This document shows positions 26,001 through 46,212 of a DNA stretch of 64,000 nucleotides, piece by piece (within the stretch, counting starts at the first letter, position 1; every line of letters begins with the position of its first letter). This DNA comes from a virus: IMG/VR virus record IMGVR_UViG_3300035158_000293, positions 32,001 to 96,000 of that record; one strand, given 5' to 3'. The position numbers and the translations under genes were made by a program. The notes beneath the pieces were generated by a model. The model did no database searches, was not told the DNA's origin, and was given only the letters and a program-made list of their open reading frames with translations.

Positions 26001-29000
26001 ATTGTGCTCGTTTTTACCCTCTGAGAACGCACATGCGCGTCCATGCGCGTTTTTCTTTCGTGGGTTGGTGCCTCGTGTCATGTCGATGTCGAAAATGCTT
26101 TCTCGCGCATCCTCGTTCGTTTTTCGTTTTTGGGTGGTTTGCGCCTCGATCTCCGTACCGAAAACGTGCTGTGTAAAGGCGGATTCACCTAAAACCTCGG
26201 CCTTTACACGCTCCACATTACGGAAGTTTGTCTTCTTGAGAACGTCTACCCCGCCATGTCCGAGGGCTTTTTCACACCCCGCGGCAATTGCTCGGGCATT
26301 GCCGTACACGGGAAGAACGTAGTCGTCGCGATCTTTACCGAAGATAACCGCCGCCCCGACAATCTTGTTTGCACCTCGGAATGTAATGGGCTCTGTCACT
26401 CTGACATTCGGGTACTGGCTCTGCAAGGCGGTTGTCGTTGGACGATTCAAAACAGGACCGAGCTTGTCCACAAGGGCCTCAAGCTCCTTCCTGATTTTCG
26501 GGTTGTGTTGGTCGGTACGTCCCGGCCCTTCGTAGTTACGAACCCACGCTTTGAGGAAGTCCTTTATCTCTTTCTCCGCGGTCCTCCTGATCTTGACAGG
26601 GTCCACGTTTTGTGACGCGGCCATGCGCTCTATGTACTTCGCCACAAAACCCTCAAACGTATCCCGCCTTTGTGCCAACGCTTTGTCACGTTCACCTTCG
26701 ATATACTCACGCTCCCAATCTGCAAGGTCCGGGTCTTGGTAGTTGTACCGGGCCTCGAACTCTTCGTCGGGTTCGGGGTCAAATTCCTTAACCGTGTACT
26801 TCGTAATCGCCATGCCTGCCGGTGCAGCCATTACTGCAACCGATCCGGGGTCGGGAAGCTGGTCTTCGTCGGTTTTTGCTGTGCGCGTTTCTATTTGCAC
26901 GGCGAAAAGCATAGGGTCTCCGCCGAATTTGTTTGTGGCGTCCCTCGCGGAACTCAATGCTGTGAGGAAGTTTTGTGTGAAGTAGTTACCATCAAGACTT
27001 GCGAGGGCTTGATTCTTCTGATCCCAAACTTTCTGCTTCTGATTGAGTTTGAAGCCTTGTTTTAGAATCGACCTCCCAAACTTGGTAGTGGTACCGTGGA
27101 AGTACAACGCCTTGGCTTCGGTTAGATTTGACGTTGTGTCAAAACCCTCCCAAAAGTCGTCATCGAACTCGATTTCGATCTCCATACCCGGAAGCTCAAT
27201 TTCAATCTCGTTGTCATCCTCGTCTTCGTCGCCGTCTTCTCCGTCGGGATTTGTACCCTCTGGACTCGTGTATTTCCCGGTCAACAGATAGCCGTCGGAC
27301 GATGGCATTGTCGATGAATCTCCCTTTACAATGGCGTCCTTTCCGGGATGCGTAGTTGTGATACTGTGCTCCGGGTGTTCGCCTGCGCAAGTCTCCTCCT
27401 CTTCGGCTGCTTCATCGGACTCCGTTACCGGTATCTTCGTTCGGGCCAACGCATCTGCAAACGTGGCAAACCTTGCCACCTCAACCTCGCCTTGCATCAC
27501 CACAAAAGGCTCGTCCCCGTACTCCTTTACGTCGATGCTGTACTCTGTCTGTTCCTTTTCTTTCTTAGTCTGGAACAGCCCTTTGTCGCGTTCTGAATCC
27601 TTGTCCGCAAAACGCTCGCGTTTTTGGTATGATCCTGTCCTTATGCTCCGCAATTTTGTACGAAGGTTCTGTAGCTTCTCCGCGAAGTCATCCAAAACAG
27701 AGTAAGTGTAATAGACAGTTTGTCCGGTTTTCCTGCCCGTCTCAACATTACGGCGTATGCTAGCCAAAGCCTCGCGAGCATACGCGCTGGTTTCAAAGGC
27801 CGTCACCACGTCATCTTCTTGGTCGTCGGAAACGAAGAACACCTTTACGGGACCATCCACGCCTGCGGGCATGATCGCTTTGTCATACTCGACACCAGCA
27901 ATCACGACCCCTGCGTCGAACACTTCGTAGTTGTCGAGGTCTTCGCCATATATGAACTCGTGTTTGCCGTAAACAGGGTAATACGGCAACGCTTCTTCTG
28001 TATCGTCGGCTTCTGTCACACTCTCGTTCATGCGGGCCTTGATCCAGCTCTTGAAGCGGCTGTTCTTATCCTTTGCGGACACGATCTCTATTGTGTAGTC
28101 GGACTCGAGCTTTTTGATCTCTTTGAGGAGGTCCGCCTTTTCATCCCAAGTATCTCCATCTAAAGCGTGTTTCATTCTCAAAATGTCGGGCCACTCTTCC
28201 GACGGTTTGTCTCGCCACTCCATGTAATTGGTTACGTCCTCAAGCTGACTGATCCCTATGAGCAATTCGGACCCTTTGGGAATCTTCAAATCCCGATCTT
28301 TTATAATCCACTCGCCCTCGTTCTTGTAAACCTGTCCAATGAGCTTCAATCCCTCTGTTATTTTGCGCTCAAGCTCTTTCATAGGGACTTCGTCCAAAGC
28401 ATCGGCGAAGCGCTTGTAAGTGTAGTCCTCCTCACGAAGCTTTGGAATGCCGACCTTCTTCAACCACTTTGCAATATCTCGCGGTCCTCGGATTTTCTTG
28501 GGCGGGTTTTTTCGGGCTACGTCCGCCAACTTGCTGTGGCCAGCTATGTGTCGATTTTCCATCACAAGTGTTTTGTATTTCGAATCACTCTTGAACGCCT
28601 CTATCATGTATTCGAACACGTTGCGGTAAACCTGTGTTAAACCTATCGGGGTCTTGCTCGCGTCAAACAAACGGTAGAGCGCGTCACAATTCTTGGCGGT
28701 GAGATACATGGGGTTATCGTACATAACGCGGCTAACGGCGTTCTCTTCAACAAACGCACGCCCCGGCATCTTCAACGCGGCTGACTTGTTGAACAAGTAT
28801 TGGATGTCCTCGGAGCTACTGACACCCGCAGCGCCTTCGAGCCGTCTCTTTTTCAATGACTCAAGGTGAGACGGCTTGTACACGTCGAACGACAGGTAGA
28901 AAAATTCCGGTATGTCCGCGTCGGTGTAAGACGCCTCGACCAATGGCCGACCTGCAAACGTGGCCGTGTGCTCGTTTGTATCACCGTTAGGTAAACCCTT

Positions 29001-30902: not shown

Positions 30903-31007
30903 TGTTTTGTCCTTCCGTAAAGTGCGGCGGCTTCACCGGAAGGGCCGTTCAAAAAGGACCGTTTCACGGAAGTTACGACCGCGTTCGTGGAATTCGTTTA
31001 CCGGTTG

Positions 31008-34000
31008 TTATGCGAGCATGCCGTAGCCGTCACCAACCTCCAAATCACCTTCAGCCGAAACCATCATGGTTCCGCATTTGGGGCACTCCATGCCCCGCGC
31101 GGTTGACTGTTTCGGTCCTGTGGAGTAACCACAGCCCGGACACCGCATGAGCCCCACAGACATCGCAAAACCACCGCTGGAGAAACCACCCGTGCTCGCA
31201 GTTGTAGTGACTTCCTTGAGCCTTTTTGCGGTCTTGCCTGTGAAGCCGCTCTCTTGATACTTCTTGTACGCCAACTTGTCGAACTTGCCTTTCTTGGCTT
31301 CCCTCTCAAACTGATCCCGCATCATCTCTGCGGCTCTCTGACGTATCTGTGGAGTAACGTCGAGATAAGGAATGCCTACAACCTTGGAGGCACCTTTGTA
31401 CGCCGCATTGGACAGAGTGAGAAACTTCTTCACCGCCTGCTCGCGGTCGTAGTCACCTTTGGCGACGTGGTTGATCATCGACCTGCAAGCTTGCTGCCAT
31501 GCGGGTTCCGCGGCCATTTGAATCGTTTTGACAATGAAGTCCGCCATCTTCTTACCATACGGCGTTTCTTCATCGCCTTCTCCTTCATCGAGGTGTTCCA
31601 CGCTCTCCATGAACATGCGGACCTTGCGCTGTATCTCCGCCAACCGTGCTGTTTTGTCTAATTTGAAATTGTCGTCCTCTTCATCCTCGTCGGGGTCGTA
31701 CTTAGGGCGCGTAGCCTTGATAACAGCCATTAAGTCAACCGCCTCGTTCAACGCTTCGGGAAACAACTCACGACGTCGTGCTTTGACCCGTTCTATCATA
31801 GGCTCCCATGAACCATATCCGGGATCAAGACGCTCACCATACTGACGCAACGTGTCGGGTGTCATGTACCTTTCTTGTCCGCGCTCTTCAAAGCGTAGTA
31901 ACACGCGGCAATCACTCCCGTCGCTCTCGTTTGGGCCGTTTACAAACAACAGACCGACACTCTCCAAATGCACCGACGATTCCCCGATGATTTGCATAGG
32001 CCAATTCTGCTTGACGATGGGCAAGTAAACACCCTCGCTGGTTGAAGCGTTTGCACCAAACGATACCTGATTGAACGGCACCGGCTTGTGTCGGCTAAGG
32101 TGTGCAACCTGCCTTGCGAGTTTGGTCTGTTTCGGGGTTGAGTAGTCGAACGTCTCTTGGAGATTTGACACAACGTCAAACCCTTCAACCACGTAATCTT
32201 TCGGCTTATGTGTGTAAGGGGATAAACCAACAGGCAATCCGGTGGGAGGTACGAATGCGTCAGGGTTGTTGCTCAAATACTCCTCCATGTCCTTGCGTAG
32301 TATCTTCATCAAACCCCTCTTGTCGCCATCCTTTTCAGGGTCTGTTATTTGATCGTTGAAAACCTCCATGAAACGCTGCGCCCACCAAGGGTTCTGAGGC
32401 ACGGTAAAGAGTGTTTGCTTCTTGGGGTCGTTCAACGCCCGCCCTATTTCTGCAATGCTGTAATTATTCAACTGCGCAGACTCACCGAATAACTCTTGCA
32501 AATACGATAGGTAGTTTTGTACCTCTGGTTTAAGCCCTTTGAACTTCTCCACGGACTCCAAGTAGCTCTCTTTATCGGTCCGCCCTATTTCTTCAATCTT
32601 GTTACCGCCCTCGCTACTAACCTTAACCAACCAAATTTTTTCGTTCCCCTCGGCATCAACTGCGGCGTAATATGCTTTGCGGTATAATTTCCCTTTGTGT
32701 TTACCTACGCCTTCTGTTTCCTCGTACTTCTCTATGGTATCGAAGGTTAGGTTTTTCAAATCCTCAACCGTTCTACTCACACGGTCAGGAATTACAGGGC
32801 TCGACGGCGGCGCGGGAGGGGCCTCTGTAACGGTAGGCTCAGAATCCAAACCCTCACCGGTGATTTTCTTCTTAATCTTAGCATACCACTCACGAACCTG
32901 ATCAAAACCTTCTTTTACATCGTTGCCATAGGTAACATACTCGGCAGCACCTTGATCTATATACCCACCGCGATCCTCAACCTCCTTCAACAAGTCTTCA
33001 TTATTCCACGGATAGGTCAACGTAAGATTGAACCCTTCCTTGGACCCTGTCGATTTGGTTGCGCTGCGCTGTACTCCCTCGTCTGTAGTGTAAATCCCAA
33101 AGTAAATGCTCGCCGCGTCTAACCGACCTTGATTAACGGCGTTCAACAACTTTGTAAGGTTGACACTAATACCCGCAGGACCAACCTTTGACGTAAATGC
33201 TTTAGGCTTTGAATCGCTGGGAGAGAGTTTCAAAGCCCCTTTAACGGTGAAGCCGCCCTCGTTTACTACCTGCTCCTTCGGGATGTTGTTCTTGACCCAC
33301 TCGCGCAGCTCAAGGATTTTAGGATCGGTGGCCGCTTCCTTGGAGTCTTTGACAAACTCCGTGTAAACCTTACCCACGGCTTTCATGGCTTCCTTGAAAG
33401 CCTTAACACTCGGCACCGCCTCTATACCCTCGGACTTGAGGTATTCCTCAACCTGCTTTTCAGTCACAACCATTACATCGCCGTCTGGAACTTCAAAGGC
33501 GAACACACGGTGTACCAAATCAAATCCGCCACCATATGTAGGTAAGTCCTCGACCTGCAAACCCGCCCACTTCAACGAGAAGTCGCGGCCTGCCTCTTCA
33601 CTTTTCAAACCCATGCCTTCAACCGCATCACCAGAGATGATCTTCACGTTGACTACAGGCTTGACTATGGGAACCCCGTAATTTGAGAACTCTTGTGTTG
33701 TAGCCTGAGTCTCCCCGTACTGAGAAGCAAACTCCGCTATCTTGACTTGCTTTTCGTCCGTATAGGTATCGGCTTCTTGATCTGCCGGTTTTTCGGCTTC
33801 TGTATCTGCCATAGCGTCGTCTTGTGTAGCGCCGGGTTCCAGATCAGGCTCCCCGGTTTCTTCGGGCGTTGGAATGTCCAACTGTTGCTCTCCGGGTACG
33901 CCTTCGACGGGCCACATGTCACCGTCCTCATACATATCGAGCAACTGATCATCCCAAACGTGGGTCAGCGTGTCCTGCCCAAGTAGATACAGCAAATAGA

Positions 34001-35837
34001 GAGGATCACCGTCAGGGTCGTTAATGACCGCGTAGATGTACGCCTTATTACCCGACGTATCGGTAACGTAATCCTTCAATTTGACCGGGCTTCCGTTCGC
34101 TTTGGCTGCCTTTGCAAAGTCGGTAGTGTGGATATTAACCATCTCAACACCGGCTTCAGCAATGTCTTGCAATTCCGGCTGTGTCGCCACGTAAGCTTCG
34201 ACCTCTGTACGACGGATGTCGTCAGAAGGAACGTCAACCTCTGTCTCGGGGACCGCGGAACTGGGTAGAGAAGCCCCGACGTAATCACCCCACTCGGTGA
34301 CAACTTTGTTCGTCAACTTCGACAGGCTGTGAATGTACTTTTTCAGAACGGCTTTGATGGACTTCTCGCTCGGCATGACCATCCAATCGCCAAGCTTGTC
34401 CTGCCATTTGCCGTTGGCCTGCACCGTATAGGTTGCGAAAGGTTTCCCCTGCTCCACACCGAAGCCACGAGTCTCCACCGTCATGGTGTTGTACATCTCG
34501 CCGGTAGCTCTCACAAGGAACTCAACGCGCAGATGTGGGAGCCCGACGCCCGGACCATAACCGGGGTCTTTTTGTGGTTCAACGTAAGCCACAAGCACCG
34601 CTGTGTCGGGTTGCCCTCCGGTTTTCGTAGTGTTCGTTTTTTCCACCGCCACAATAACGGGGAAGGAACCACCCAACTTGATCGTGTCGGGAATGTTTCC
34701 AGACTGGGCAAGTCGATCAGCCACGGGCTTCAACGCCTTGCGTAACGCGGGTTTGTATCGCGCCAAGAGCTTTTCCAACTCTTTCACGGTGTACTTCTTT
34801 TTAAGCCCTTGTTTGCGACGGTGTTTCGTCTTGAAGTAGTACTTCTTGGGGAACTTCTTGGCCTTGGCTTCATACAACGCAACAAGATCAGACCTGTCGT
34901 ACAGACTTTCACAAATGCGAGCCTTTGCACGAGTCAATTGCGTGCTTGACATTGAGTCAAACCGCTCCCGCAGACGCTCTATGTCTTCTGTAAGCGGTGT
35001 CCAATTCTCTGCGTCCGTAGTCACCCATCGAACCTTTTGGGCATCCTCTGCCACCACCCTGATTCGACCACCTATACGATGAAGCTGTGCTTGTTCCAAA
35101 TCCACGTCGAAGAGGTGCTCCACAAGCTTGCCAGCGAGCACCTTTTCAACCACGGCCTCCTCATATTTCTTCATGGTGTCTTTCGCCAACTCCGGCTCTT
35201 TTTCTGGCTTCTTGTCTTCTTCCTCCTCTTCGCTACCTTTGTCTTTCTTTTTTGTCGCGGGTCCGGGACGTCCACCCTTGACGGGCTTGCCTTCAAGGAT
35301 AACCACATCAGACACCACCCCGTCTTCGGGAGCCACCGAACCACCATTCACCAGCATATCGAAGGTTGCGATGCTGCTCGTAGTGCTTCTCAGACGCTCA
35401 AACTCCATATCAGACCACTTGCCCTCGAAAATAGCGAGGAAGGAACTACTTCCGGGGCGTACCTGCGTCTCCACGAATTTCTCATACAGGTCACGACGCT
35501 TGGTTAAAAGAAAGGTTTCAAATTCCAGAGCGGCCATGCCGGTGTCAGAGTTGGTGTACGTGGCGTCCTTCTCTATGAATTTCTTGGCAAACTCACGAGC
35601 ATCGACGCTCCCCAAAGCAACCGCTGTCTCCGTGATCAGATCAATATATGCCGCCGGATGTGCAACCGTCTCGCCCGTGATTGTAGTGGGAAGGTCAAGC
35701 CTGTCCCGCATGTCAGCGATGCGATCATAGAGAGAAACGTCGAGCTTGTCCACAAGGTCCGCCTCCAAGCGGCCTTCTTCAAGAGCTTGACGCAGACGTT
35801 TGCCTGAATACAGCGTGCATTTGGGTTGGGCCTTCAT
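31008..35837 (-). CDS. 1609-aa multidomain protein with C-terminal Zn ribbon
   Basis: GGAGG RBS; long ORF; CPGC...CPKC at C-terminus; LxE[AG] linkers. Confidence 0.8.
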   Translation of the reverse strand: MKAQPKCTLYSGKRLRQALEEGRLEADLVDKLDVSLYDRIADMRDRLDLPTTITGETVAHPAAYIDLITETAVALGSVDAREFAKKFIEKDATYTNSDTGMAALEFETFLLTKRRDLYEKFVETQVRPGSSSFLAIFEGKWSDMEFERLRSTTSSIATFDMLVNGGSVAPEDGVVSDVVILEGKPVKGGRPGPATKKKDKGSEEEEEDKKPEKEPELAKDTMKKYEEAVVEKVLAGKLVEHLFDVDLEQAQLHRIGGRIRVVAEDAQKVRWVTTDAENWTPLTEDIERLRERFDSMSSTQLTRAKARICESLYDRSDLVALYEAKAKKFPKKYYFKTKHRRKQGLKKKYTVKELEKLLARYKPALRKALKPVADRLAQSGNIPDTIKLGGSFPVIVAVEKTNTTKTGGQPDTAVLVAYVEPQKDPGYGPGVGLPHLRVEFLVRATGEMYNTMTVETRGFGVEQGKPFATYTVQANGKWQDKLGDWMVMPSEKSIKAVLKKYIHSLSKLTNKVVTEWGDYVGASLPSSAVPETEVDVPSDDIRRTEVEAYVATQPELQDIAEAGVEMVNIHTTDFAKAAKANGSPVKLKDYVTDTSGNKAYIYAVINDPDGDPLYLLYLLGQDTLTHVWDDQLLDMYEDGDMWPVEGVPGEQQLDIPTPEETGEPDLEPGATQDDAMADTEAEKPADQEADTYTDEKQVKIAEFASQYGETQATTQEFSNYGVPIVKPVVNVKIISGDAVEGMGLKSEEAGRDFSLKWAGLQVEDLPTYGGGFDLVHRVFAFEVPDGDVMVVTEKQVEEYLKSEGIEAVPSVKAFKEAMKAVGKVYTEFVKDSKEAATDPKILELREWVKNNIPKEQVVNEGGFTVKGALKLSPSDSKPKAFTSKVGPAGISVNLTKLLNAVNQGRLDAASIYFGIYTTDEGVQRSATKSTGSKEGFNLTLTYPWNNEDLLKEVEDRGGYIDQGAAEYVTYGNDVKEGFDQVREWYAKIKKKITGEGLDSEPTVTEAPPAPPSSPVIPDRVSRTVEDLKNLTFDTIEKYEETEGVGKHKGKLYRKAYYAAVDAEGNEKIWLVKVSSEGGNKIEEIGRTDKESYLESVEKFKGLKPEVQNYLSYLQELFGESAQLNNYSIAEIGRALNDPKKQTLFTVPQNPWWAQRFMEVFNDQITDPEKDGDKRGLMKILRKDMEEYLSNNPDAFVPPTGLPVGLSPYTHKPKDYVVEGFDVVSNLQETFDYSTPKQTKLARQVAHLSRHKPVPFNQVSFGANASTSEGVYLPIVKQNWPMQIIGESSVHLESVGLLFVNGPNESDGSDCRVLLRFEERGQERYMTPDTLRQYGERLDPGYGSWEPMIERVKARRRELFPEALNEAVDLMAVIKATRPKYDPDEDEEDDNFKLDKTARLAEIQRKVRMFMESVEHLDEGEGDEETPYGKKMADFIVKTIQMAAEPAWQQACRSMINHVAKGDYDREQAVKKFLTLSNAAYKGASKVVGIPYLDVTPQIRQRAAEMMRDQFEREAKKGKFDKLAYKKYQESGFTGKTAKRLKEVTTTASTGGFSSGGFAMSVGLMRCPGCGYSTGPKQSTARGMECPKCGTMMVSAEGDLEVGDGYGMLA

Positions 35838-35968
35838 AAAAAATACCTCCCACGTAAATGGTTTAGCGTAGAAGGTATTTTACTATGTGCCGTCCCGTAT
35901 TCAACCTCTTTCGGAGCTTTCGCCGCGCCCCCTCTCCAATTCAAGCCACACTCTTCTGAGGGGAAACG

Positions 35969-36877
35969 CTAGTCCCACTCCACCTGTTCCGTCTTGTCCA
36001 TGAAGGTCACGCCAGCAGGCCACTTTTCGGGGACCATTATCATGTAGTCCGTGAAAACTCGCGGGGAAAGAACATCGTCTTTCAACGCCACCTGCACGGC
36101 CTCGAACAGGTGAAACGCTTGGCAATTCCCCAAGGTGTCGGCATGCTCCCACACAAACAACCGACGTGTAGACATACGGCCTCGCCCCGCCGACCGGCTA
36201 AGGTCGAACATGTGGATGATGGCTTCCCACAGAGCATCCAAATCGGCGTAGGTAAAGCCTGTGTCTGCGGCGAGCATGGGGTTGACGAAACCTTCTGCGA
36301 CGTACAAACCGTAAGGGATCGTGTACTTGGAACCCATCTCCGTCTCGCTTTTGTGCGAGTCCGTTTTCTCCTGCGTAGTGTACGCCACCCGCGTGATCAT
36401 GTGGTTTTTGATCAGAACACGGCTCACCGACCGAGCATCTGTTATCTGTACCGGCCCTGTAACTTGTCCGTTGTTGAACGCCGTAGTGCTCATTACCGCA
36501 CCGAACGCCCGTACATCGAAAAAGTTTGCGCACATCCAATCCCGCGCCTGCGCAATGTCGTCCTTTGTGGCTTTCTCGGGGTCGATTTTCAAATTATCGT
36601 AGGACATCCTCTGACGACTCTCGAGAGCGTGCCCCGCCAGCACGAAGATGTCCTGCCCCTTTTCGACTTTACCGCCTTGCGAGTGCTTGTAGTAGTGAAA
36701 GTCCCGTATCTTGCGCTTCAGGCTTCCGTTGGAAACAAGCCCTTGAAATGTTTCCGGGTCCGTCCGTGGAGCGTTGTTGAAATCGGGATCACCGTTGGGG
36801 TTTCCGTCCACACAATCGAACATGATGAGAAAATCGTACCGCCGGTCAACTACCTTGTCACGTTTGGCGTCTGCCAT
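35969..36877 (-). CDS. cas7: Type I-C Cas7 (Csd2)
   Basis: RYDF...GNPNGDPD..NAPR.DPET..GLVS...LKRKIRD; FFDVRAFGAVM; GPVQ; MGSKYTIPYGLY. Confidence 0.97.
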   Translation of the reverse strand: MADAKRDKVVDRRYDFLIMFDCVDGNPNGDPDFNNAPRTDPETFQGLVSNGSLKRKIRDFHYYKHSQGGKVEKGQDIFVLAGHALESRQRMSYDNLKIDPEKATKDDIAQARDWMCANFFDVRAFGAVMSTTAFNNGQVTGPVQITDARSVSRVLIKNHMITRVAYTTQEKTDSHKSETEMGSKYTIPYGLYVAEGFVNPMLAADTGFTYADLDALWEAIIHMFDLSRSAGRGRMSTRRLFVWEHADTLGNCQAFHLFEAVQVALKDDVLSPRVFTDYMIMVPEKWPAGVTFMDKTEQVEWD

Positions 36878-36932
36878 TTTGTGATCCTTTCGTTTTTTGT
36901 TTGTTTCAACCTTTTTTTTTCAACATAACCCG

Positions 36933-37403
36933 TTTTCAATCCGCGCACATGTGCGAGTGTTACTGTTGGTGCGAGTGTTGGATTTGAACCCTTCACAGTT
37001 TTCAATCCGCGCACATGTGCGAGTGTTACCTCACCCATGCGATGGGCTGTGGCAGAATGTTTTCAATCCGCGCACATGTGCGAGTGTTACCCGGTATGAT
37101 CCGTCTCTCCCTTTCAATCCGCGCACATGTGCGAGTGTTGCTGTGATAAACTATCGGTCTGATCCTGTCTTTCAATCCGCGCACATGTGCGAGTGTTACC
37201 ACCTGACCGCTTTTCCTTTTTTCAATCCGCGCACATGTGCGAGTGTTACCAATGGACGCTCATCCAGCTTGCAGTTTTTCAATCCGCGCACATGTCCAAG
37301 CGTTACTTTATTTTCAATCCGCGCACATGTACGAGTGTTGTCATGTCCTCCATGATCGGCTCAACTTTGTGTCTTTCAATCCGCGCACATGTGCGAGTGT
37401 TAC
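36933..37403 (-). CRISPR. Type I-C-like array: 9 repeats (GTAACACTCGCACATGTGCGCGGATTGAAA), 8 irregular spacers
   Basis: 30-nt cores start (+) at 36934, 37000, 37061, 37112, 37170, 37220, 37277, 37312, 37374; GGATTGAAA 3' end typical of I-C; spacers in transcription order 32, 5, 27, 20, 28, 21, 31, 36 nt. Confidence 0.95.
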
Positions 37404-37825
37404 TGGCTTTCGGTAGTTTCCGTTTCGGCCTCCTTTCTGGCGATAGCTTCCTCTGCCTGCTGTCGATCATGGGCTTTTTGGTGGTAAAAACCGACGGCGA
37501 AAAGCGCCTGATCTTCCGGGCTTTGCTGTGTCGGGAACCGCTCTATTCGATTCATTACGTCTGTCACCCGCTGGTCAATCGCGTGGCCTGCCGCCACAAT
37601 CGCGGGGTTGCGTGATCTCTTGAGTTTCGCAATGTGGTAGCGAGCCTTCGGGTTCATCTCGGAAAAAGCTTGATCCGGTACGACCGCGGCGTTACGGAAA
37701 AACTGCTCGGCAACCGTCCGCTGTATCTTGAAAATGGCTTTGTACTGCAAAGTGTCGTAGATAGCCAGCAAACGCCCACACAGGTAGGCGGGGTGGTTAT
37801 TGTTGTGGTCCAATTGCGCTTCCAC
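37400..37825 (-). CDS. cas11: Cas11c small subunit from internal in-frame start in cas8c
   Basis: GAGGAGG SD (37831-37837) 5 nt before in-frame GTG, just ahead of LD..N.HPAYLCGRL, where I-C Cas11 is known to start. Confidence 0.75.
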   Translation of the reverse strand: MEAQLDHNNNHPAYLCGRLLAIYDTLQYKAIFKIQRTVAEQFFRNAAVVPDQAFSEMNPKARYHIAKLKRSRNPAIVAAGHAIDQRVTDVMNRIERFPTQQSPEDQALFAVGFYHQKAHDRQQAEEAIARKEAETETTESQ

Positions 37826-39244
37826 GTTGCCCTCCTCTAAATCATTCAAACATACCCGCAGAAGTGCAAGTTTCTGTGACGCCCTCTGCATAGGGTCAGT
37901 ACAAAAAATCCTTTCCAACAACCGTGAGAGCACTCGTCGGTCGAGCGGTTCGTTGAACAGCGCCCGCCACACCAAACTCTGCTGGATGTGGTCCTCTGGA
38001 CTTTTACCTTTTGTCGCCGCACCCTCCATTGCGGGGTCTGCAAGTGTTTTTTGTAGTTTCCACAATGCGGGCGCTCGAACAAAGCGTCCGCTGTAGGGGC
38101 TCTGAACTCGCACGTCGTGGAACCATTGCCACACGTTTTCGTATATCTCCCCTATGGTGTTGTCATCGTACCGCCGCACGATCATGCGGGACATGTTCGC
38201 TGTAACGGTAAGTGAGTGAAAGCGCAAATCCGTAACCTGTGGTAGTGGTTCCGATTCTGTTCCTGCACCAAAAACTTGACACAACGTCAAACCCTGCTTC
38301 GGAGCATCCAGAACAGCACTTACAATGTCCGGGTCGGGGTTGTTCACGAACTCCATCGGAGGGTGTAAAACAGGTTCGTCGGTCCAGCACAGTAGTGCCG
38401 CGCCCCGGATATTGTATCGCGTTCGCACCTCTTTCTCGGACCTGTACCGGAGCAGATCGTTCAACGCCATAACATACGCTTTGGATGCTCGTATGCTCAT
38501 CGGGCAGTTTTGATTTTGTTTCCATCCAAACGACTCGAACGCCGCACGATTAAACGATATGAGCGATACACCCGAAGGCATACCCCCGATATTGGTGCAA
38601 TGTTTGATTTTATCGTGCGTCCGCGACAACGGTCCATACTCCCCCGTCACAATACAGTATCCGTGCCCCGCGGAAGCGTGGCGTTCGAAAACACCCTCCT
38701 CGTAGTAATCTGCCCAATACTGTCGCAGGGCCTCACGCTCGACCACAGGTTCAGGTGAAGTGCTTCCGGGGATTGCGCAGTATAACGCCAACCGATTGTT
38801 GGCTACAACACCTCGTTCAACAGCTAACTCTCTGGCCTTTTTGACCACTTCGGGGTCCGCATAGAACGCCACACACGCCTTAACCGCTGGATCGTCGGTA
38901 ACGTCTGCGATTGTATTCCACAATTCAACCGAGGCAACGTGACGTTCGTTGTGATTTCGCTCTTTACCTTCCGGTGTCCATGCGGGGTCCGCCCCCAAAA
39001 TATACTGCACCGCGTCGCACCCCGGTAGTGGGTACAACCCGCCGGACCTGTGGTGCGGAGATTTGGGGGCTGAAAGGGTTGTTTGACCTTCCGGTGCAAT
39101 ATCTTCAAAAGGCATAATGTCCACAAGCCCGCCTTTTGCATCGAGAGCAACTACGAAGTGTACCAAACCCTCTTCAAACGCTGGGTTGTTCAACTCGTCA
39201 GACAGGTTGCTTTCCGCATAGGCACACAAAGCCTTCAAATACAT
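37400..39244 (-). CDS. cas8c: Type I-C Cas8c (Csd1)
   Basis: CIVTGE....RTHDKIK; SLISFNRAAFESFG..QN.N.P; AYVMALNDLL; AYLCGRLLA; FAVGFYHQ. Confidence 0.95.
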   Translation of the reverse strand: MYLKALCAYAESNLSDELNNPAFEEGLVHFVVALDAKGGLVDIMPFEDIAPEGQTTLSAPKSPHHRSGGLYPLPGCDAVQYILGADPAWTPEGKERNHNERHVASVELWNTIADVTDDPAVKACVAFYADPEVVKKARELAVERGVVANNRLALYCAIPGSTSPEPVVEREALRQYWADYYEEGVFERHASAGHGYCIVTGEYGPLSRTHDKIKHCTNIGGMPSGVSLISFNRAAFESFGWKQNQNCPMSIRASKAYVMALNDLLRYRSEKEVRTRYNIRGAALLCWTDEPVLHPPMEFVNNPDPDIVSAVLDAPKQGLTLCQVFGAGTESEPLPQVTDLRFHSLTVTANMSRMIVRRYDDNTIGEIYENVWQWFHDVRVQSPYSGRFVRAPALWKLQKTLADPAMEGAATKGKSPEDHIQQSLVWRALFNEPLDRRVLSRLLERIFCTDPMQRASQKLALLRVCLNDLEEGNVEAQLDHNNNHPAYLCGRLLAIYDTLQYKAIFKIQRTVAEQFFRNAAVVPDQAFSEMNPKARYHIAKLKRSRNPAIVAAGHAIDQRVTDVMNRIERFPTQQSPEDQALFAVGFYHQKAHDRQQAEEAIARKEAETETTESQ

Positions 39245-39945
39245 CGCAATTCCCCCCACGCCTTCCTGTCCAAAACCACGAAGGGGTCTGTATTGATGAC
39301 CCCATCACGCATGACCGCTCGGTAGAACACGGGCGTGTTGTGGCCGTTTTCCCTGTAGACGATGCCGTACAACATTGTCCCCAAATCCTTCGTGACAGGA
39401 ATGGGGGTGCCTTCATCGCCTGTCAGACACGTTATGTTTGCGGCATACTCTCGACATCCGAGGTACGGTTGGTGAAACTGTTGCCCCTCCCGTAAGCGAC
39501 GCAGGAACATCTCCTTGTATTTGGTCGGTCTGCTCTGTTTGTCCGCTCGATGAACCTTCGGATATGCCGTCACAATGTAGTCAACGTCCCGCAAGATTCG
39601 CCCTGTGCGGTTTGTTGTGTGCCTCGCTTGTCCCGCACCGCCCGGCTGTGGTCGGTAGGTGGAGGGGTCGCCCATCCACCGCTTTACCGTGCGCGGAGCA
39701 ACTTTATTGAGGAGTTCGTTCGTCGCAAAGCTCTGCCATTTGATGGGTTTCAACACCGCAATGCTGGTGATTATCCAAATGAATTCGGGCTTCCCGAGGA
39801 TAGCCCGCAGAGCACCGCGTAGTGCAGACGGTGTCGGCACCTCGTAGGATACTCGTTCAGCCTTCCCCTCGGGTCGTGTGAAACACGCCAAAGCCCCTCT
39901 GATCCTCACCGTTACGCTCGCGTGTTTTTGTCTTGTGGTAGTCAT
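39235..39945 (-). CDS. cas5: Type I-C Cas5 (Cas5d)
   Basis: G..ACFTRPE.K.ERVSYEVPTPSA.RG; LRDVDY; FHQPYLGCREY; DLGTMLY; start reassigned to ATG 39945 (AAGGGGG RBS). Confidence 0.96.
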   Translation of the reverse strand: MTTTRQKHASVTVRIRGALACFTRPEGKAERVSYEVPTPSALRGALRAILGKPEFIWIITSIAVLKPIKWQSFATNELLNKVAPRTVKRWMGDPSTYRPQPGGAGQARHTTNRTGRILRDVDYIVTAYPKVHRADKQSRPTKYKEMFLRRLREGQQFHQPYLGCREYAANITCLTGDEGTPIPVTKDLGTMLYGIVYRENGHNTPVFYRAVMRDGVINTDPFVVLDRKAWGELRCI

Positions 39946-39967
39946 GCACACCCCCTTTTTTATTTTT

Positions 39968-39996
39968 AGTTTACCCGGTGGAGCGAGTTTTGTCAA
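39968..39996 (-). promoter_or_regulatory. Sigma70-type promoter of the cas operon
   Basis: TTGACA-N17-TAAACT with T-rich upstream element. Confidence 0.8.
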
Positions 39997-40037
39997 GAAA
40001 AAGCAAGAAAAAAATTTAGGCGCACATGCAATCACGG

Positions 40038-40472
40038 TCAATAAGTGCGTTCCTGAAAGGTTTGGCGCATTCTATCTACGACAAATTGGATAACGTGCTC
40101 CATTAAAGAACGTATAACCAACTGTCCGTGCTCCTCCAACAGCTCTTTGGCGGCTTGTGACACAATTTCGCTACCCCAACTGCCAACGCTCGCACCCCCA
40201 CTCGTACCTTCGCTATCCAAGTACTCCTTAACAGCTTCCTTGAAGTAGTCTCGCACCTCTTCCTTGATCATTTCCCGTAAAAGTGAAGGCTTGCTCTCAC
40301 CGCCTTTTTTGCGGGGCTTGGTGAATTCTTCGATCTCTTGCTGGATTATCTGGTTCCGAGTGTCTTCGTCCATCGTTTCAACAAGGCTCTCGCGAATTGC
40401 TGCTTTCACACGAGAAGACCACACATCCGCAAGGTCTGGTTTAACATTGTAACCCATGACTACCTCCTTCAT
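40038..40472 (-). CDS. Hypothetical helical protein
   Basis: AGGAGG RBS near start. Confidence 0.6.
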   Translation of the reverse strand: MKEVVMGYNVKPDLADVWSSRVKAAIRESLVETMDEDTRNQIIQQEIEEFTKPRKKGGESKPSLLREMIKEEVRDYFKEAVKEYLDSEGTSGGASVGSWGSEIVSQAAKELLEEHGQLVIRSLMEHVIQFVVDRMRQTFQERTY

Positions 40473-40503
40473 GTTTGTTCCACAAAACGCGCACAGCCGT
40501 AGC

Positions 40504-40872
40504 TCACGTTGTTTTCTTGGGTCTTATGATGCGTTTCTTGCCCGGTCGTTTGCCGATGCGTTTTACGACCTTCTGTGGCTTTTTTGGTTTCTTCGGTTTC
40601 TTCGGTTTTCTAATCCGTTTTTTAGCGCGGTGAAGGTTATCGTACCGGTCAACGTGCAGTTTGCCGTCAGCATCTTTGACTTGGCAACATACCTTACTTT
40701 TGCCTGCACGCCCCACGAGGGTACCTGATCGTCTTACTACCTCCCCCGAGGCCCGGTCAAAAAACGTGAAGAGAACGCGGTCGCCCGGTCTAAAGCCGTG
40801 TGTATCAAAGGCTTCACCCGCCATTGTCTTCTCCATCGGCCTCTTGAGCACCCGACAACCGAGCCAACGCAA
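40504..40872 (-). CDS. Basic protein with Lys/Pro-rich tail
   Basis: FRPGDRV N-terminal motif; KPKKPKKPKKP; true start probably MAGEAF. Confidence 0.5.
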   Translation of the reverse strand: MRWLGCRVLKRPMEKTMAGEAFDTHGFRPGDRVLFTFFDRASGEVVRRSGTLVGRAGKSKVCCQVKDADGKLHVDRYDNLHRAKKRIRKPKKPKKPKKPQKVVKRIGKRPGKKRIIRPKKTT

Positions 40873-41080
40873 GGGTCAAGCTCCGCGCCGTGTAGCCCTC
40901 ATTCTCCACTACCACATGCGACAACGCATCCACCGCACTATCAACCGCATTTTCCAGCGCGACGGCATCCCCTGCCTCAACCAACGCCCGAAAGTGATCT
41001 GCGGTAACACCACAAAATACCCGTACCAGCGTCGTGTCACCGAGTTTGATCTCAGCATAAAGATCGGAAGAGTAGTCCAT
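40814..41080 (-). CDS. Hypothetical protein downstream of a strong promoter
   Basis: GGGGG RBS before MDYSSDL. Confidence 0.5.
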   Translation of the reverse strand: MDYSSDLYAEIKLGDTTLVRVFCGVTADHFRALVEAGDAVALENAVDSAVDALSHVVVENEGYTARSLTLALARLSGAQEADGEDNGG

Positions 41081-41158
41081 CTTGCTGCCCCCAGTCAGTT
41101 TAACCGGTTTGTCATGTCGCGATGCCATCACAGCCCCCTGAACAATGTGTGTTTCTTC

Positions 41159-41187
41159 ATTATACCTTACGAAGGCAGTTCTTGCAA
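41159..41187 (-). promoter_or_regulatory. Sigma70-type promoter
   Basis: TTGCAA-N17-TATAAT. Confidence 0.7.
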
Positions 41188-41403
41188 AGTTTTTTTCGCG
41201 TTTCTTCGCTCACAGGGAGAATCTTTCTTATTTTCCCTGTGAGATAACAGGTTGTAGTCACCCGATCCCCCACCCCCACTTCCTCTTCGGTTATGAGGTG
41301 GAGAACACCTTTATTACTGTAAGTGTAAAGACTTACGATTTTGTACCCTGTTAAATCCGTCTGTTGCGCTTCGTTGTCTGCTACACGTATTTTTGACATT
41401 GTG

Positions 41404-42675
41404 TCACACCCCCAAACGTACAAGCGGAATTCTTGCTCGTGCTTGTGCAATTTTTGCACTTCCCAAATCTTTCTCAATTAACACAAAGTCGTACTCCAAA
41501 CGCTGGGCCGCAAGTCCTGTTGTTCCTGAACCGGCAAACGGGTCCAAAAGCAAACCGCCCTCGGGAGGTTGTACGAGCTTACACAAATACTCCATGAGTG
41601 CAAGCGGCTTGACTGTTGGATGTTTGTTGACTACACGACCATCGTCTGTGCGTTCCTTTCGTGAGGCTTTCGCGCAGTAAAAGAACCGCGCAGCACTACC
41701 TTCGTCCCCGAACGTGTCCGTCGCGACCGTATCAGGCTTCCATTCCCCGTACACATTCTTTCCAGCACTCTCGGACATCTGCCTGCGCGTCCCTTTCTTC
41801 ATGAACCCGCTTTTTGTGTTCGGGAAGTGTTGTAGAACCTCAGCGCTCCCGTCGTGGATCAGGTTGGCGGGGAAGCGGCCTTTTTTGGAAGCACGCAACC
41901 CTCCTTGTGCAGTAGGATCACCCTTACCCACTAGCCCCATAAACTTATCCGACATAAAACCAGCGCCAGAGGCACCATCCTGCCTAACCCAACCCGGACC
42001 ATCCACTCTACATCCGTCTATGTTTAAGCCAGCTACACCATGCTCAAGTGCGTTTTGTGCGTATGTTCCATCGAGCGGTTTCATGCAAAGCCACCAACAT
42101 TCTACGGATGGCTTGAGTGCCGTCCCCCAGCCATCCCAAAGTTGGGCAGCGTGAGTGGCGGGGGCGGTGATGTCCAGCACGTTCTCGCCCTTTTGGTATT
42201 CCCCCGGACGATAGTTGTGATCTTTGGCGTTACTACGATTGAGGTGCTCTGTGCCACCACCTTTCCTTCGAACTTTAGCAATCACCTCCCGCTCCGCACC
42301 AGCGGCCTTGTCTAGTGCCTTTGAGATGTCATGGTTTTTGGGGAACCCCTGTCCTGTAACGTAGTAAACACAATCCCTTACAACAAAACCTGCGTCCTCT
42401 AATCCCATAGCGGTCCAATGGCTCGTGCGAGGGAGCGCCCAACACAGACAATGTGCGCCGGGTTTTAGAACCCGCAGGACTTCCCCCATAACAAGTGTCA
42501 ACCACTCAATCCATTTGTCCCTACCTCCTTTGTTTGAATCCCATTGCTTGCCCATGAATGAGATTCCGGCGGGAGGGTCGGTGACACATGCGGTGAATGT
42601 GTTGTCCGGGAGCCGCTTCAAGACATCCAAGCAGTCTCCGTTGACTACGGTGTTTTTTATGTCATGGAGAATCAT
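41404..42675 (-). CDS. DNA methyltransferase, N6A/N4C beta class
   Basis: VTDPPAG; GFPKNHD; GWGTALKP; HPTVKP; LDPFAGSGTTG. Confidence 0.92.
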   Translation of the reverse strand: MILHDIKNTVVNGDCLDVLKRLPDNTFTACVTDPPAGISFMGKQWDSNKGGRDKWIEWLTLVMGEVLRVLKPGAHCLCWALPRTSHWTAMGLEDAGFVVRDCVYYVTGQGFPKNHDISKALDKAAGAEREVIAKVRRKGGGTEHLNRSNAKDHNYRPGEYQKGENVLDITAPATHAAQLWDGWGTALKPSVECWWLCMKPLDGTYAQNALEHGVAGLNIDGCRVDGPGWVRQDGASGAGFMSDKFMGLVGKGDPTAQGGLRASKKGRFPANLIHDGSAEVLQHFPNTKSGFMKKGTRRQMSESAGKNVYGEWKPDTVATDTFGDEGSAARFFYCAKASRKERTDDGRVVNKHPTVKPLALMEYLCKLVQPPEGGLLLDPFAGSGTTGLAAQRLEYDFVLIEKDLGSAKIAQARARIPLVRLGV

Positions 42676-43187
42676 TCCGAACCCTCTTGTGTGCTTGGTA
42701 TCACCAGCTTTGCGTCAAGAGCCTCTAATTCTTGCAAGCATTGAACCACACGGCTCATTCGTTGGAGATTGTCCAACCCCGCGCTTGCATTCAAAATCTC
42801 AACACCCGCAGATGGGAGGAACCCAAGGACGAACTTGCTACACCCGACACACTTGTACGACCGCAGGAAACAGACCCTATCAGGTTTAGCTATCCCCTTG
42901 CTGATAGCCCATTGGTTTGTGGCCGTATGATAGCGGGATGCAACACCGTAGCGCTGCAACACTTCCTCGACCTTCCGTTGCATCTCAGGTTGTACAGCGC
43001 GGGGATGACCGCTGTCAGCCGAAACCTGATCAAGGTCAACTGGCCCCTCTGTATGTCCCTTTTCAGTCATGCCGCGCCTCCTGCCCGTGTTTTGATCCCG
43101 CTTTGTTGCCCCAACTCTCGTGCCAGTAACGCGCAACTGGCCATAGGGCCGCACGACACCGACCACCCTTGTACCTATAAAATACAA
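42672..43187 (-). CDS. Hypothetical protein
   Basis: Overlap packing; true start probably MTEKG after AGGAGG. Confidence 0.45.
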   Translation of the reverse strand: MYFIGTRVVGVVRPYGQLRVTGTRVGATKRDQNTGRRRGMTEKGHTEGPVDLDQVSADSGHPRAVQPEMQRKVEEVLQRYGVASRYHTATNQWAISKGIAKPDRVCFLRSYKCVGCSKFVLGFLPSAGVEILNASAGLDNLQRMSRVVQCLQELEALDAKLVIPSTQEGSE

Positions 43188-43407
43188 TCCAAAAGTGCGT
43201 ACCTACCTGCACAGCGTGTGGTAGGGACTCAAATCTGGCCTTGGCTATTTGACACACTACGCCGACCCCTTCAGGGCCTATAAATTCAACATACCAATCC
43301 GCCCCGTTTGCAGCCTCGCCCTTAACCTCTGCATCGTAAGATTCAACCACTTCGGTCAGGTGTTCGGGGTATTTCCACGCAAACTTCTCCTCACCTGCGT
43401 TTTTCAT
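43063..43407 (-). CDS. Hypothetical protein
   Basis: GAGGAGG RBS. Confidence 0.55.
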   Translation of the reverse strand: MKNAGEEKFAWKYPEHLTEVVESYDAEVKGEAANGADWYVEFIGPEGVGVVCQIAKARFESLPHAVQVGTHFWIVFYRYKGGRCRAALWPVARYWHESWGNKAGSKHGQEARHD

Positions 43408-43422
43408 ACGACCTCCTCGAGA

Positions 43423-43683
43423 CTAATCGTAAACAAGCTTTGGAATGCGCAGGCGTGTATCGGCTGGCCGTGTGGACATCTCTAACCGGAGAGTCGTAAG
43501 TTCCGCCTCTATTTGGCGTAACCTTTCCTCTATCCATTCATTGTTGGGTGTCCAGTCGGTGCGCTTGTAAAGCCTAACCTCCCGACAGTCACAAGAACCT
43601 ACGGGACACTTACCTTCCCGGTTCCATAGACATTCAGAACATTCGTGGTGAATGTCTTTGGCCAGTTTGTTGTGGTGAAACAT
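43423..43683 (-). CDS. Small Cys-rich protein
   Basis: GGAGGGAG RBS; CSEC...CP...CDC. Confidence 0.5.
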   Translation of the reverse strand: MFHHNKLAKDIHHECSECLWNREGKCPVGSCDCREVRLYKRTDWTPNNEWIEERLRQIEAELTTLRLEMSTRPADTRLRIPKLVYD

Positions 43684-43703
43684 CTCTCCCTCCCTACCGG
43701 GGG

Positions 43704-45507
43704 CTAACAGAAACGCACAAGCGGAACCTGCACTCTGTTCTGTGCCACGCGAGCGCTGTTCAACTCTTTCTCAATCAACACAAAGTCGCAACCCACACTA
43801 CGAGCCGCGAGCCCTGTTGTTCCTGAACCGGCAAACGGATCGAGGATAATCCCGCCAGTCGGCGTCCGTACCAATTTGCACAAATACTCCATAAGTGCAA
43901 GCGGCTTGACTGTTGGATGCTTGTTGACTACGCGGCCATTGTCTGTGCGCTCTTTTTTATTTACCTTGGCACAATAGAAGAACCGCGTTGTGTTCTGCGA
44001 ATGGTACGGGCACGGGTCCATGTCCTTCACCTTCTTGAACATGCCCTCGCTTTGCTGTTTAGTCAAAGGAGGATCACACGTACCGTCCGCTTCTCGCCAT
44101 GCACAGTTAGCGCACGAGGGTTCGACGTCGGGATCACATTGCTGGAAAAATCTTGATGCTCCACCCTTGTCGCCATGTTGGTTATGTGGACCGCCCTCAC
44201 CACGAATAAACCCTGTTATGCCATCACTACTGTAACCGCCAACCTTGCGCTTCATAGCACCTGATTGTGTGACACCACTCTGGTCGTCCAACAGACGTAC
44301 CGGGCAATCAGGGTGGCACTCCCACACCTCCACCGTTTCTTTGCCGTCAGCGTCGCCGTGACAAGGGCCACACGGTTCTTTTCCGCCTTTTTCGGCTCCC
44401 ACGTTGGCAAAGCCGCCCGGACGCTTTCCTGAGCCTCCTGCGCGTTTGTCACCTCTCACTTGTGTAGTCCCTCTGCAACGACACGCTGGGTGGTGTGTGA
44501 GAATTATGTTGGCTGGCCAACGACCTTGTTTGTGGGCTCCTGTCGGTATCGCGTTTGTCTCGGGACGATCTTCTCGACCTTCCGCCGTTCGCCACGCATT
44601 GAAATTACGACCGCCGCCCGGAACGGGTGATCCGGGGTTGATTCTACACCCGTCAATGTTCAGACCAGCTACACCATGCTCAAGCGCATTTTGAGCGTAT
44701 GTCCCATCGAGCGGTTTCATCGCCACAATCACGCTTTCCCATGCTGGTTTGAGTGCTGTCCCCCATCCGTCCCAAAGCTGGGCAGCGTCGGTGGAGGCTT
44801 CGTATACATTCCCGCTGTGTGCCAACCCGTAGATCGTCCCGTCGCCCCGTCTATCAGTCTTGACGCCTCTTCGTGTGAGGCGCAAGTCCTCTGCTCGAAC
44901 TCTGTCCCTCCACTTTGGCGACACTCCCAACCGATCAACAAGGATGTTGTATGCTTCAAGAGACGGAACACGAAAGCCGTGATCGGTTCTTTCCCAGTTG
45001 TCTGTCACATAACCGTACTGAGGGAACCACCCCTTCAATTCCCGGCGCGACACACCCGCTTGTTCGCGGCACATCCGTATTTCTTTAGCCAGCTCTTTTC
45101 TCGCTTGTAGGTGTAGAGCCGACCGACCTCCCGCCTTGTCAATCGCCTTCGCAATGTCATGGTTTTTGGGGAAGCTAACCAGAGCCATACAGCCACATAA
45201 TGCAATCGCGGATTTCGAAACCCGCATCTTCGATTGCACATGTCAGCCGATGGCTCGTTCTGGTCCCTCCGAAGGCCAGTAGATGTCCGCCGGGCTTGAG
45301 TACACGGAGAACCTCTTTCCAGTAAGTCTCCCCCGGCACGCCGTGATCCCAATCCTTACTCATAAAAAATAATCCATATGGCGGGTCTGTTACACAAGCA
45401 TCAATACAAGCGTCAGGAAGACGCTTCAAAACCTCCAAGCAATCTCCATTGACTACGGTATTCAAAACATCGTTAAAGCACACCGTTGACAACCTCCTAT
45501 CGGCCAC
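43704..45507 (-). pseudogene. Frameshifted beta-class DNA methyltransferase with internal HTH domain
   Basis: DPPY half (45175-45507) ends WLYGSG*; FPKNHD...HPTVKP...DPFAGSG half continues in another frame; 4 extra nt (TAGC, 45174-45177). Confidence 0.85.
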
Positions 45508-46139: not shown

Positions 46140-46212
46140 AGCTGGGGATGGGAATTGAACCCACAACCCCCGGTTTACAAAACCGGCGCTCTGCCAATTG
46201 AGCTACCCCAGC
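46140..46212 (-). tRNA. tRNA-Thr (TGT), CCA not encoded
   Basis: GCTGGGG/CCCCAGC acceptor stem, TAGCTCAATTGGCAGAGC D arm, CCGGT-TTTGTAA-ACCGG anticodon arm, GGTTCAATTCC T loop. Confidence 0.95.

Follow-up and report, generated by a model that had tools for sequence, protein, structure and literature searches.

In its canonical form, subtype I-C (Dvulg) of CRISPR-Cas systems has the order cas3-cas5c-cas8c-cas7-cas4-cas1-cas2-array. Nuclease-less derivatives of the Cascade complex are also found on mobile elements, such as type IV-A and the transposon-borne I-F3, which act by binding and have DinG and TniQ as partners. In huge phages, CRISPR systems including a 'type I-C variant' have been reported that are without Cas1, Cas2 and Cas4 and have compact arrays with a median of six repeats (Al-Shayeb et al. 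2020, PMC7162821). According to the same source, a fixed guide set is the rule for phage CRISPR systems, and repression without cleavage was proposed for those that have no nuclease (PMC7162821). Two further groups of systems are relevant. The array of the type III-B CRISPR4 system of Myxococcus xanthus was experimentally shown to be expressed by read-through of the polycistronic cas mRNA (PMC6061681), and the CreA/CreR and viral Cracr elements are repeat-spacer units between cas genes that have spacers of 17-26 nucleotides (nt) and form smaller, non-cleaving Cascades (PMC10120712; 10.1101/2024.10.29.618823). Here, we analyzed a 64,000-nt stretch (hereafter the window, to which all positions refer unless stated otherwise) of the IMG/VR virus record IMGVR_UViG_3300035158_000293, which carries a I-C locus whose array is located between cas8c and cas7.

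The record is linear and has 123,798 base pairs (bp), with a CheckV completeness of 75%; the window corresponds to bases 32001-96000. It consists of one metagenomic contig, for which neither a second copy nor a relative for comparison could be found. The traits of the record, namely coding on a single strand (open reading frames (ORFs) of the minus strand cover 92% of the record), giant ORFs, one tRNA and ThyX, are those of a phage, and the DNA carrying the I-C locus belongs to an uncultured phage. GC content is about 0.53 across the record including the I-C locus, that is, the GC content of the locus equals the phage average and is fully adjusted to the phage.

All parts of the locus are on the minus strand, in the order cas5c (39235-39945; 236 amino acids (aa) from the ATG at 39945), cas8c/csd1 (37400-39244; 614 aa from the ATG at 39244, within an ORF of 37400-39259), the CRISPR array (36933-37403) and cas7/csd2 (35969-36877; 302 aa). 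The end of cas5c and the start of cas8c overlap by 10 nt, and the 522 nt from the cas8c stop to the cas7 start are occupied by the array. A preliminary description of this DNA had proposed that the stop codon of cas8c lies within the first repeat of a leaderless array, and this was borne out by our analysis. The gene ends with ...GAA AGC CAG TAA (TAA at 37402-37400), repeat 1 (37373-37403) begins with GTAAC, and G37403 together with the TAA makes up positions 1-4 of the repeat, the stop codon itself being positions 2-4. It was also claimed that no room is left for a leader or a promoter. This holds for the leader (0 nt) but is too strong for the promoter, which could sit within cas8c. It should be noted that only one of the three frames through the repeat contains stops (TAA at positions 2-4 and TGA at positions 26-28), so that, given the abutment, the ending of cas8c within repeat 1 is roughly a 1-in-3 event. 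The notable feature is the zero-distance location of the array within the operon rather than the codon overlap. On the other side of the array, repeat 9 is separated from the cas7 ATG by 55 nt (36878-36932) that are A-rich and unstructured (folding energy -2.4 kcal/mol, z-score +0.6) and that carry AAAGGA at a distance of 8 nt from the ATG. This cas7 leader also contains two TTGAAA motifs, one of them as GGTTGAAAC, which resemble the 3' ends of I-C repeats and may be remnants of decayed repeats.

The matches of the three proteins to TIGR01876 (Cas5c, 1.2e-38), TIGR01863 (Cas8c, 1.6e-93) and TIGR02589 (Cas7, 2e-83) all exceeded the curated cut-offs and identify the genes as I-C effector genes; the corresponding Pfam matches were PF09704 (2.5e-24), PF09709 (6.8e-93) and PF05107 (2.2e-84). 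Cas7 is up to 56% identical to bacterial Cas7 and keeps 57 of the 63 columns that are invariant among bacterial homologues. An alignment of 26 Cas8c sequences including that of the phage contains 59 invariant columns. The tail of the phage Cas8c extends 24 aa beyond the YHHQK-type motif, compared with 15-37 aa in 22 relatives, and the public gene call (P0001) likewise gives 614 aa. Thus, with a C-terminal tail of native length, Cas8c is not truncated and the array abuts an intact gene exactly. Cas11c is produced in type I-C from an internal start within cas8c; the phage gene has an in-frame ATG in its C-terminal part, and the closest Shine-Dalgarno-like motif is about 17 nt off. Cas5c, the predicted endoribonuclease for precursor CRISPR RNA (pre-crRNA), matched the Desulfovibrio vulgaris Cas5c chains 8dex and 7kha at 3e-38 and keeps 37 of the 41 columns invariant across 15 bacterial homologues, two of the four deviations being Phe to Tyr. 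The catalytic triad of Cas5c enzymes is composed of Tyr/His, Lys and His, of which the Lys alone is invariant (PMC8524198). Mapped via the alignment to D. vulgaris Cas5c, these positions are Leu/Lys/Tyr in the phage protein, with the invariant Lys retained, and an identical Leu/Lys/Tyr is present in a bacterial relative that has arrays of 23 and 64 repeats (L013). As judged from full-length family matches and retained conserved columns, the three cas ORFs are intact.

The array comprises nine repeats of 31 nt and eight spacers. Its 20-nt repeat core occurs in nine copies in the window, all on the minus strand (36934-37393), against none in 100 shuffles, and no copy could be found elsewhere in the 123,798-bp record. 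Six of the nine repeats are identical over positions 1-30, position 31 being A or G, whereas repeats 2, 3 and 6 have three, three and one substitutions, respectively. All seven substitutions are within positions 1-11, and none of the nine copies differs in positions 12-30, which contain the 5' handle and the hairpin's 3' half (P ~9e-4, assuming uniform and independent substitutions). It is this part of the repeat, with the cut site and the handle, that Cas5c enzymes are reported to recognise (PMC8524198). The predicted fold of the repeat RNA is a tetraloop on a stem of 4 bp, plus one further pair (-4.7 kcal/mol). This stem is preserved by a G-U pair in repeat 2 and lost in the degenerate repeat 3 (37276-37306; three changes), which is only 4 nt from repeat 2. 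Spacers 1-8 are 31, 4, 26, 19, 27, 20, 30 and 35 nt long, which results in periods of 62, 35, 57, 50, 58, 51, 61 and 66. Spacer 8 (36964-36998; 35 nt) contains an 11-nt copy of repeat positions 3-13 and is probably an 18-nt spacer followed by the stump of a deleted unit. Outside the array, 9-mers of the repeat occur at the chance rate in the whole record (22 versus 21.7 expected), and a 9-nt repeat match near the cas5c promoter-like site described below was dismissed for this reason.

To compare this layout with that of bacteria, we used 80 bacterial I-C loci retrieved by a profile of 26 Cas8c sequences. All 76 loci that contain both genes have 6-154 nt from the Cas8c match to the start of the Cas7 match and no array in between; the remaining four stop short of cas7. 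For 16 loci, examination of the ORFs showed the order to be a cas3-sized gene, cas5c, cas8c, cas7, a cas4-sized and a cas1-sized gene and then the array about 2.2 kb past cas7, and the flanking ORFs in two of the 16 were verified as Cas3, Cas4 and Cas1c. Almost all repeat arrays in the bacterial loci (51 of 53) read ...GGATTGAAA on the cas strand, the two exceptions being a consensus shortened at GGATT and an unrelated repeat of 96-99 nt. On the minus strand, the phage repeat ends with CGGATTGAAA followed by A or G, which agrees with these 51 arrays and thus indicates that the phage array is oriented as the cas genes. Bacterial array periods are mostly 64-72 nt with spacers of about 33-36 nt, and seven of the eight phage spacers are below this range. 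Overall, the phage locus is like canonical I-C in the order of Cas5c, Cas8c and Cas7, the cas5c/cas8c overlap, a repeat that has a hairpin, though a short one, and, on the cas strand, a ...GGATTGAAAC 3' end, and the likely role of Cas5c as processing enzyme. It differs in that the array is between cas8c and cas7 instead of after cas2 and is not preceded by a leader, in that cas3, cas4, cas1 and cas2 were not found in the record, and in that the repeat has 31 nt and a stem of 4 bp and the spacers vary from 4 to 35 nt instead of being uniformly ~33-36 nt. Stems of bacterial I-C repeats appear to be longer than that of the phage, judged from reading the consensus sequences. As a separate observation, the array is only about 700-830 nt past cas7 in three of the bacterial loci (L042, L048 and L065), too close for cas4-cas1-cas2, and these may be variants without adaptation genes.

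Searches of the whole record gave no match to the Cas3 and helicase families TIGR01587 (cas3 core), PF18019 (Cas3 HD), PF00271 (Helicase_C) and PF04851 (ResIII), nor to Cas1 (PF01867) and Cas2 (PF09827). For the Cas4 family TIGR00372, the only match was below threshold at 13 bits, in a distant ORF of 1159 aa that has no Pfam family (G000:C1:6144-9623, outside the window). When ORFs flanking 16 bacterial loci were compared with the record by tblastn, the homologues of Cas5c, Cas8c and Cas7 matched, whereas Cas3, Cas4 and Cas1 did not. Judging from these searches, cas3 and the adaptation genes are likely absent from the whole genome. The idea that the guide set is fixed, which had previously been based on the missing leader, is reasonable, chiefly because cas1, cas2 and cas4 were not found in the record; the missing leader provides lesser support. 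The locus is therefore a phage-borne CRISPR-Cas system without adaptation genes, with a phage genome, no Cas1, Cas2 or Cas4 and a compact array. In these respects, and with Cas5c as processor, it is similar to the I-C variant of huge phages, the array here having nine repeats; in that variant, however, a helicase replaces Cas3 (PMC7162821), while no superfamily 2 (SF2) helicase domain could be found in the 124 kb examined here. Like type IV-A and I-F3, it provides a Cascade-type complex on a mobile element without Cas3 or adaptation genes. Unlike those systems, it has no evident partner, and the neighbouring genes match no family.

With regard to transcription, we scanned positions 35800-41500 for the sigma-70 consensus, which phage promoters need not resemble, and obtained 12 sites versus 4.0 expected overall. 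A putative promoter-like site, TTGACA-17 nt-TAAACT (39968-39996, minus strand), with 10 of 12 matches to the consensus, precedes the cas5c ATG by 22 nt; it has a T-rich stretch on its upstream side, and a good candidate ribosome-binding site, GGGGG, is present 6 nt before the ATG. No terminator-like site could be found on the minus strand from cas8c to cas7 and no promoter-like site in the 55 nt before cas7. Within ~1.2 kb upstream of repeat 1, sigma-70 sites were also absent, save for a weak one (9 of 12) across repeat 1 and spacer 1. The gap after cas7 (131 nt) contains a promoter-like site and two hairpins, so the transcription unit plausibly ends there. Thus, the proposal of the preliminary description that the pre-crRNA is part of the cas mRNA was supported in part: the array is on the cas strand and starts in the cas8c stop codon, no terminator-like site intervenes and cas5c is preceded by a promoter-like site, the transcription itself being a prediction. 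The alternative considered there, antisense transcription from the AT-rich segment 36880-36932, is made less likely by the result that no plus-strand promoter-like site was found in 35800-41500. The further suggestion that crRNA output is coupled to Cas7 stoichiometry is speculation. One of the features in the vicinity, a long hairpin at 35840-35881 (minus strand) with roughly 15 pairs and a run of U's after it, reaches to 2 nt from the ATG of the next gene, a 1609-aa ORF, whose GGGAGG ribosome-binding site it includes; it might act as a terminator of the cas unit, a translational switch or both. The top promoter-like site of the region (TTGCAA-17-TATAAT, 41159-41188, minus strand) is upstream of three small ORFs without a known function, which are situated before cas5c, and the 144-aa ORF adjoining cas5c gave a ribbon-helix-helix match below threshold and nothing else.

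We then considered possible targets of the spacers. Within the record, the best exact match to a spacer was 11 nt, and the best seed matches were 9-10 nt; none of these was flanked by TTC or located close to the cas5c promoter-like site. Comparison of the whole array with GenBank phages and PLSDB plasmids by blastn gave partial matches at E≥2 only, a noise level at which exact matches to the 19-20-nt spacers would also fall. Against the 80 bacterial I-C loci, the best spacer match reached 26.3 bits versus a shuffled mean of 27.5, and spacer 7, the sole one of the eight that was searched exactly, had no match in IMG/VR viral contigs and 185,579 species genomes. With regard to relatives of the locus, single-protein searches with Cas8c and Cas7 among viral contigs returned nothing, and the 26-sequence Cas8c profile matched one distant viral contig, which has no array. 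The nearest Cas8c among 5.8 billion proteins is 36% identical, and the GenBank phages yielded four short unannotated faecal records. The repeat core had no match in viral contigs. The only match in the genome contigs of the 185,579 species representatives was within a repetitive protein gene and was attributed to chance, as were two of three matches in metagenome contigs. The third was an orphan, divergent repeat with a 20-nt core equal to that of the phage (L092, minus strand, ~2930-2965), ~380 nt beyond the last repeat of an ordinary bacterial I-C array of about 39 repeats.

On the basis of these results, we favor, with moderate confidence, a nuclease-less, fixed-guide, phage-borne I-C Cascade whose cas5c-cas8c-array-cas7 is transcribed as a single RNA from which Cas5c excises the crRNAs. 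Co-transcription, processing and targets of the phage array are what we infer here. Most likely, the promoter upstream of cas5c would yield this one RNA, and Cas5c, to judge from its family, would cut each repeat at the 3' base of the small hairpin. Up to eight crRNAs, each with an 11-nt 5' handle, would be freed in this way, leaving a cas5c-cas8c mRNA that ends about 16 nt past the stop codon and a cas7 mRNA that begins with an 11-nt repeat handle and the unstructured leader of 55 nt, which includes a ribosome-binding site of its own. The guide set would be fixed, and Cascade would bind and block DNA targets without cutting unless a host Cas3 is borrowed; binding rather than cutting is the likeliest outcome because no nuclease was found in the record. 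The 19-27-nt spacers would give shorter Cascades, as with regulatory crRNA-like RNAs, whose Cascades contain fewer backbone subunits according to type I-F data (10.1101/2024.10.29.618823); for the phage spacers of 19-20 and 26-27 nt, this analogy is one of size only. Like the CRISPR4-cas of M. xanthus, the phage array would be expressed from cas read-through with no leader promoter. However, the M. xanthus array is the last element and has a 304-bp leader (PMC6061681), whereas the phage array has a subunit gene downstream, so that crRNA processing must sever cas7 from the rest of the mRNA. The resemblance to CreA/CreR and Cracr includes repeat-spacer units between cas genes, short spacers and some degenerate repeats: four of the eight phage spacers are 19-27 nt and three of the nine repeats are degenerate, yet there are as many as nine repeats, six of them identical over positions 1-30. 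In addition, those elements are mini-arrays of two to four repeats beside a normal array, with spacers matching a nearby promoter (PMC10120712; 10.1101/2024.10.29.618823), whereas the nine repeats of the phage are its only array and no match to its own promoters was found in the record. A stronger version of the favored reading, which we regard as quite doubtful, is that the operon is a self-contained, self-tuning silencing device in which one transcript provides two subunit mRNAs and short guides of graded length. The last repeat would make the cas7 mRNA a pseudo-crRNA, and Cas5c and Cas7 would polymerise from its handle over the cas7 ribosome-binding site (~41-46 nt downstream) and stop Cas7 synthesis when free crRNA runs out, while, in the course of infection, Cas3-less Cascades of differing length would silence rather than cut host or rival-phage genes.

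Several observations weigh against the favored reading. The repeat hairpin (4 bp plus one pair, -4.7 kcal/mol) is no better than that of shuffled sequences and is short, so crRNA processing may be poor, and D. vulgaris Cas5c has a Trp stacked between bases 1 and 2 of the handle (PMC8524198), which is replaced by Gly in the phage protein. No spacer target was found in searches of the record, phages, plasmids and I-C loci. No relative of the same layout was found in the collections searched. The record is 75% complete, and cas3 or cas1-cas2 could lie in the missing quarter. Finally, the stemless repeat 3, the 4-nt spacer 2 and the partial repeat in spacer 8 look like decay. A decaying relic is thus an explanation to be considered, although we regard it as unlikely: a partly captured I-C locus whose array erodes via small deletions and holds no useful guides, the position between cas8c and cas7 being a rearrangement scar. 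Such erosion of a captured locus and the favored reading account equally well for the irregular spacers (4-35 nt, seven of eight below the bacterial 33-36 nt), the dead repeat 3 with its broken hairpin and the partial repeat in spacer 8, and a relic would also explain why Cas3, the adaptation genes and targets were not found. On the other hand, the three cas ORFs are intact with 37 of 41 (Cas5c) and 57 of 63 (Cas7) invariant columns, variation among the nine copies is confined to 11 repeat bases, the 19 that matter for Cas5c being perfect throughout, the locus has fully taken on the GC content of the phage, and phage genomes seldom retain 4 kb of dead DNA.

Other explanations concern the expression, use or reality of the array, and each of them is less likely than the favored single-RNA reading. 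The array might have its own promoter, located in the 3' end of cas8c or formed by the TTGAAA of a repeat together with the next spacer, and the output of crRNA and cas mRNA would then be uncoupled. The site TTGAAA-16-GATCAT across repeat 1 and spacer 1 (37379-37352) and two sites within cas8c (38937 and 38636), all matching at 9 of 12 positions, could serve this role, as could a promoter that does not look sigma-70-like. However, these sites are at the threshold level in a region where 12 sites were obtained versus 4.0 expected overall, none is present in the 200 nt before repeat 1, and such a promoter would supplement rather than halt the read-through from cas5c-cas8c, given that no terminator-like site intervenes; we consider this explanation improbable. 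It is even less probable that the crRNAs chiefly hijack or jam a I-C system of the host, in the manner of RNA anti-CRISPRs or viral regulatory crRNA-like RNAs, instead of serving the phage Cascade. The 19- and 20-nt spacers fit the 17-21 nt of viral Cracr pseudo-spacers and those of 26-27 nt fit host CreA/CreR, and viral arrays directed at I-C were predicted in the same preprint (10.1101/2024.10.29.618823). However, the phage has its own full set of Cas5c, Cas8c and Cas7, and its nine repeats far exceed the two to four of known mini-arrays. Moreover, no array with the phage repeat core was found in the 185,579 species representatives, and no spacer scored above shuffled controls in the 80 bacterial I-C loci. 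Finally, the array or its position might result from repeats mis-joined during metagenome assembly, which would fit the fact that the record is one metagenomic contig for which neither another copy nor a relative could be compared. Collapse of repeats, however, deletes whole spacer-repeat units and neither shortens spacers nor leaves partial repeats, the junctions between the cas8c stop and repeat 1 and between repeat 9 and the cas7 leader are both unique sequence, and alternative joins would still set an array against both genes, so that an artefact appears very improbable.

Phage CRISPR systems without nuclease or adaptation genes, compact arrays, co-transcribed arrays and repeat-spacer units between cas genes are already published. 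What is new here is the subunit gene beyond the array, a case that rests on one contig. To our knowledge, in every type I system studied, the guide RNA and the subunit mRNAs are separate products; if the favored reading is true, excision of the guides necessarily splits the subunit mRNA in two. As Cascade contains one crRNA to about seven Cas7, the locus would offer a natural test of setting Cascade stoichiometry at the RNA level, provided that transcription and processing hold, and it would represent a compact (~4 kb), natural, nuclease-free and multiplexed cassette for CRISPR interference. The phage origin, the failure to find Cas3 and the truncated spacers each alter what the system likely does, and the locus adds one case to the increasing evidence that CRISPR effectors with guides that are fixed and shortened are retained by phages for uses other than cleavage. 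Little significance attaches to all of this before transcription and processing are demonstrated or another such locus turns up. In the literature covered, which for PMC7162821 was passages of its text, we found no described type I locus whose sole array is leaderless and located between the gene of the large subunit and that of the backbone; positions of phage I-C arrays may be shown elsewhere in that paper.

The surroundings of the locus provided some additional observations. Directly 3' of cas7 and on the same strand are two giant ORFs, 31008-35837 (1609 aa) and 20088-30902 (3604 aa), neither of which matches a Pfam family; the sole match was to PHROG 13298 (unknown function), at residues 2425-2465 of the 3604-aa ORF. 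A single-protein search among viral contigs found no relatives of the 1609-aa neighbour, and Rfam gave no matches in positions 30000-45000 of the window. Farther upstream of the cas genes, also on the minus strand, are a tRNA-Thr(TGT) gene (46140-46212) and the gene for the ThyX thymidylate synthase (49701-50558), whose nearest relatives are 49% identical. Between these and the cas locus, an intact 423-aa N6/N4 DNA methylase (PF01555; 41404-42675, minus strand) is accompanied by a second paralogue (43704-45507, minus strand) that, from its translations, looks split across two frames: the N-terminus of the intact methylase has its counterpart in a 110-aa ORF (45175-45507), and an overlapping 511-aa ORF (43704-45239) contains the corresponding C-terminus together with a long insert.

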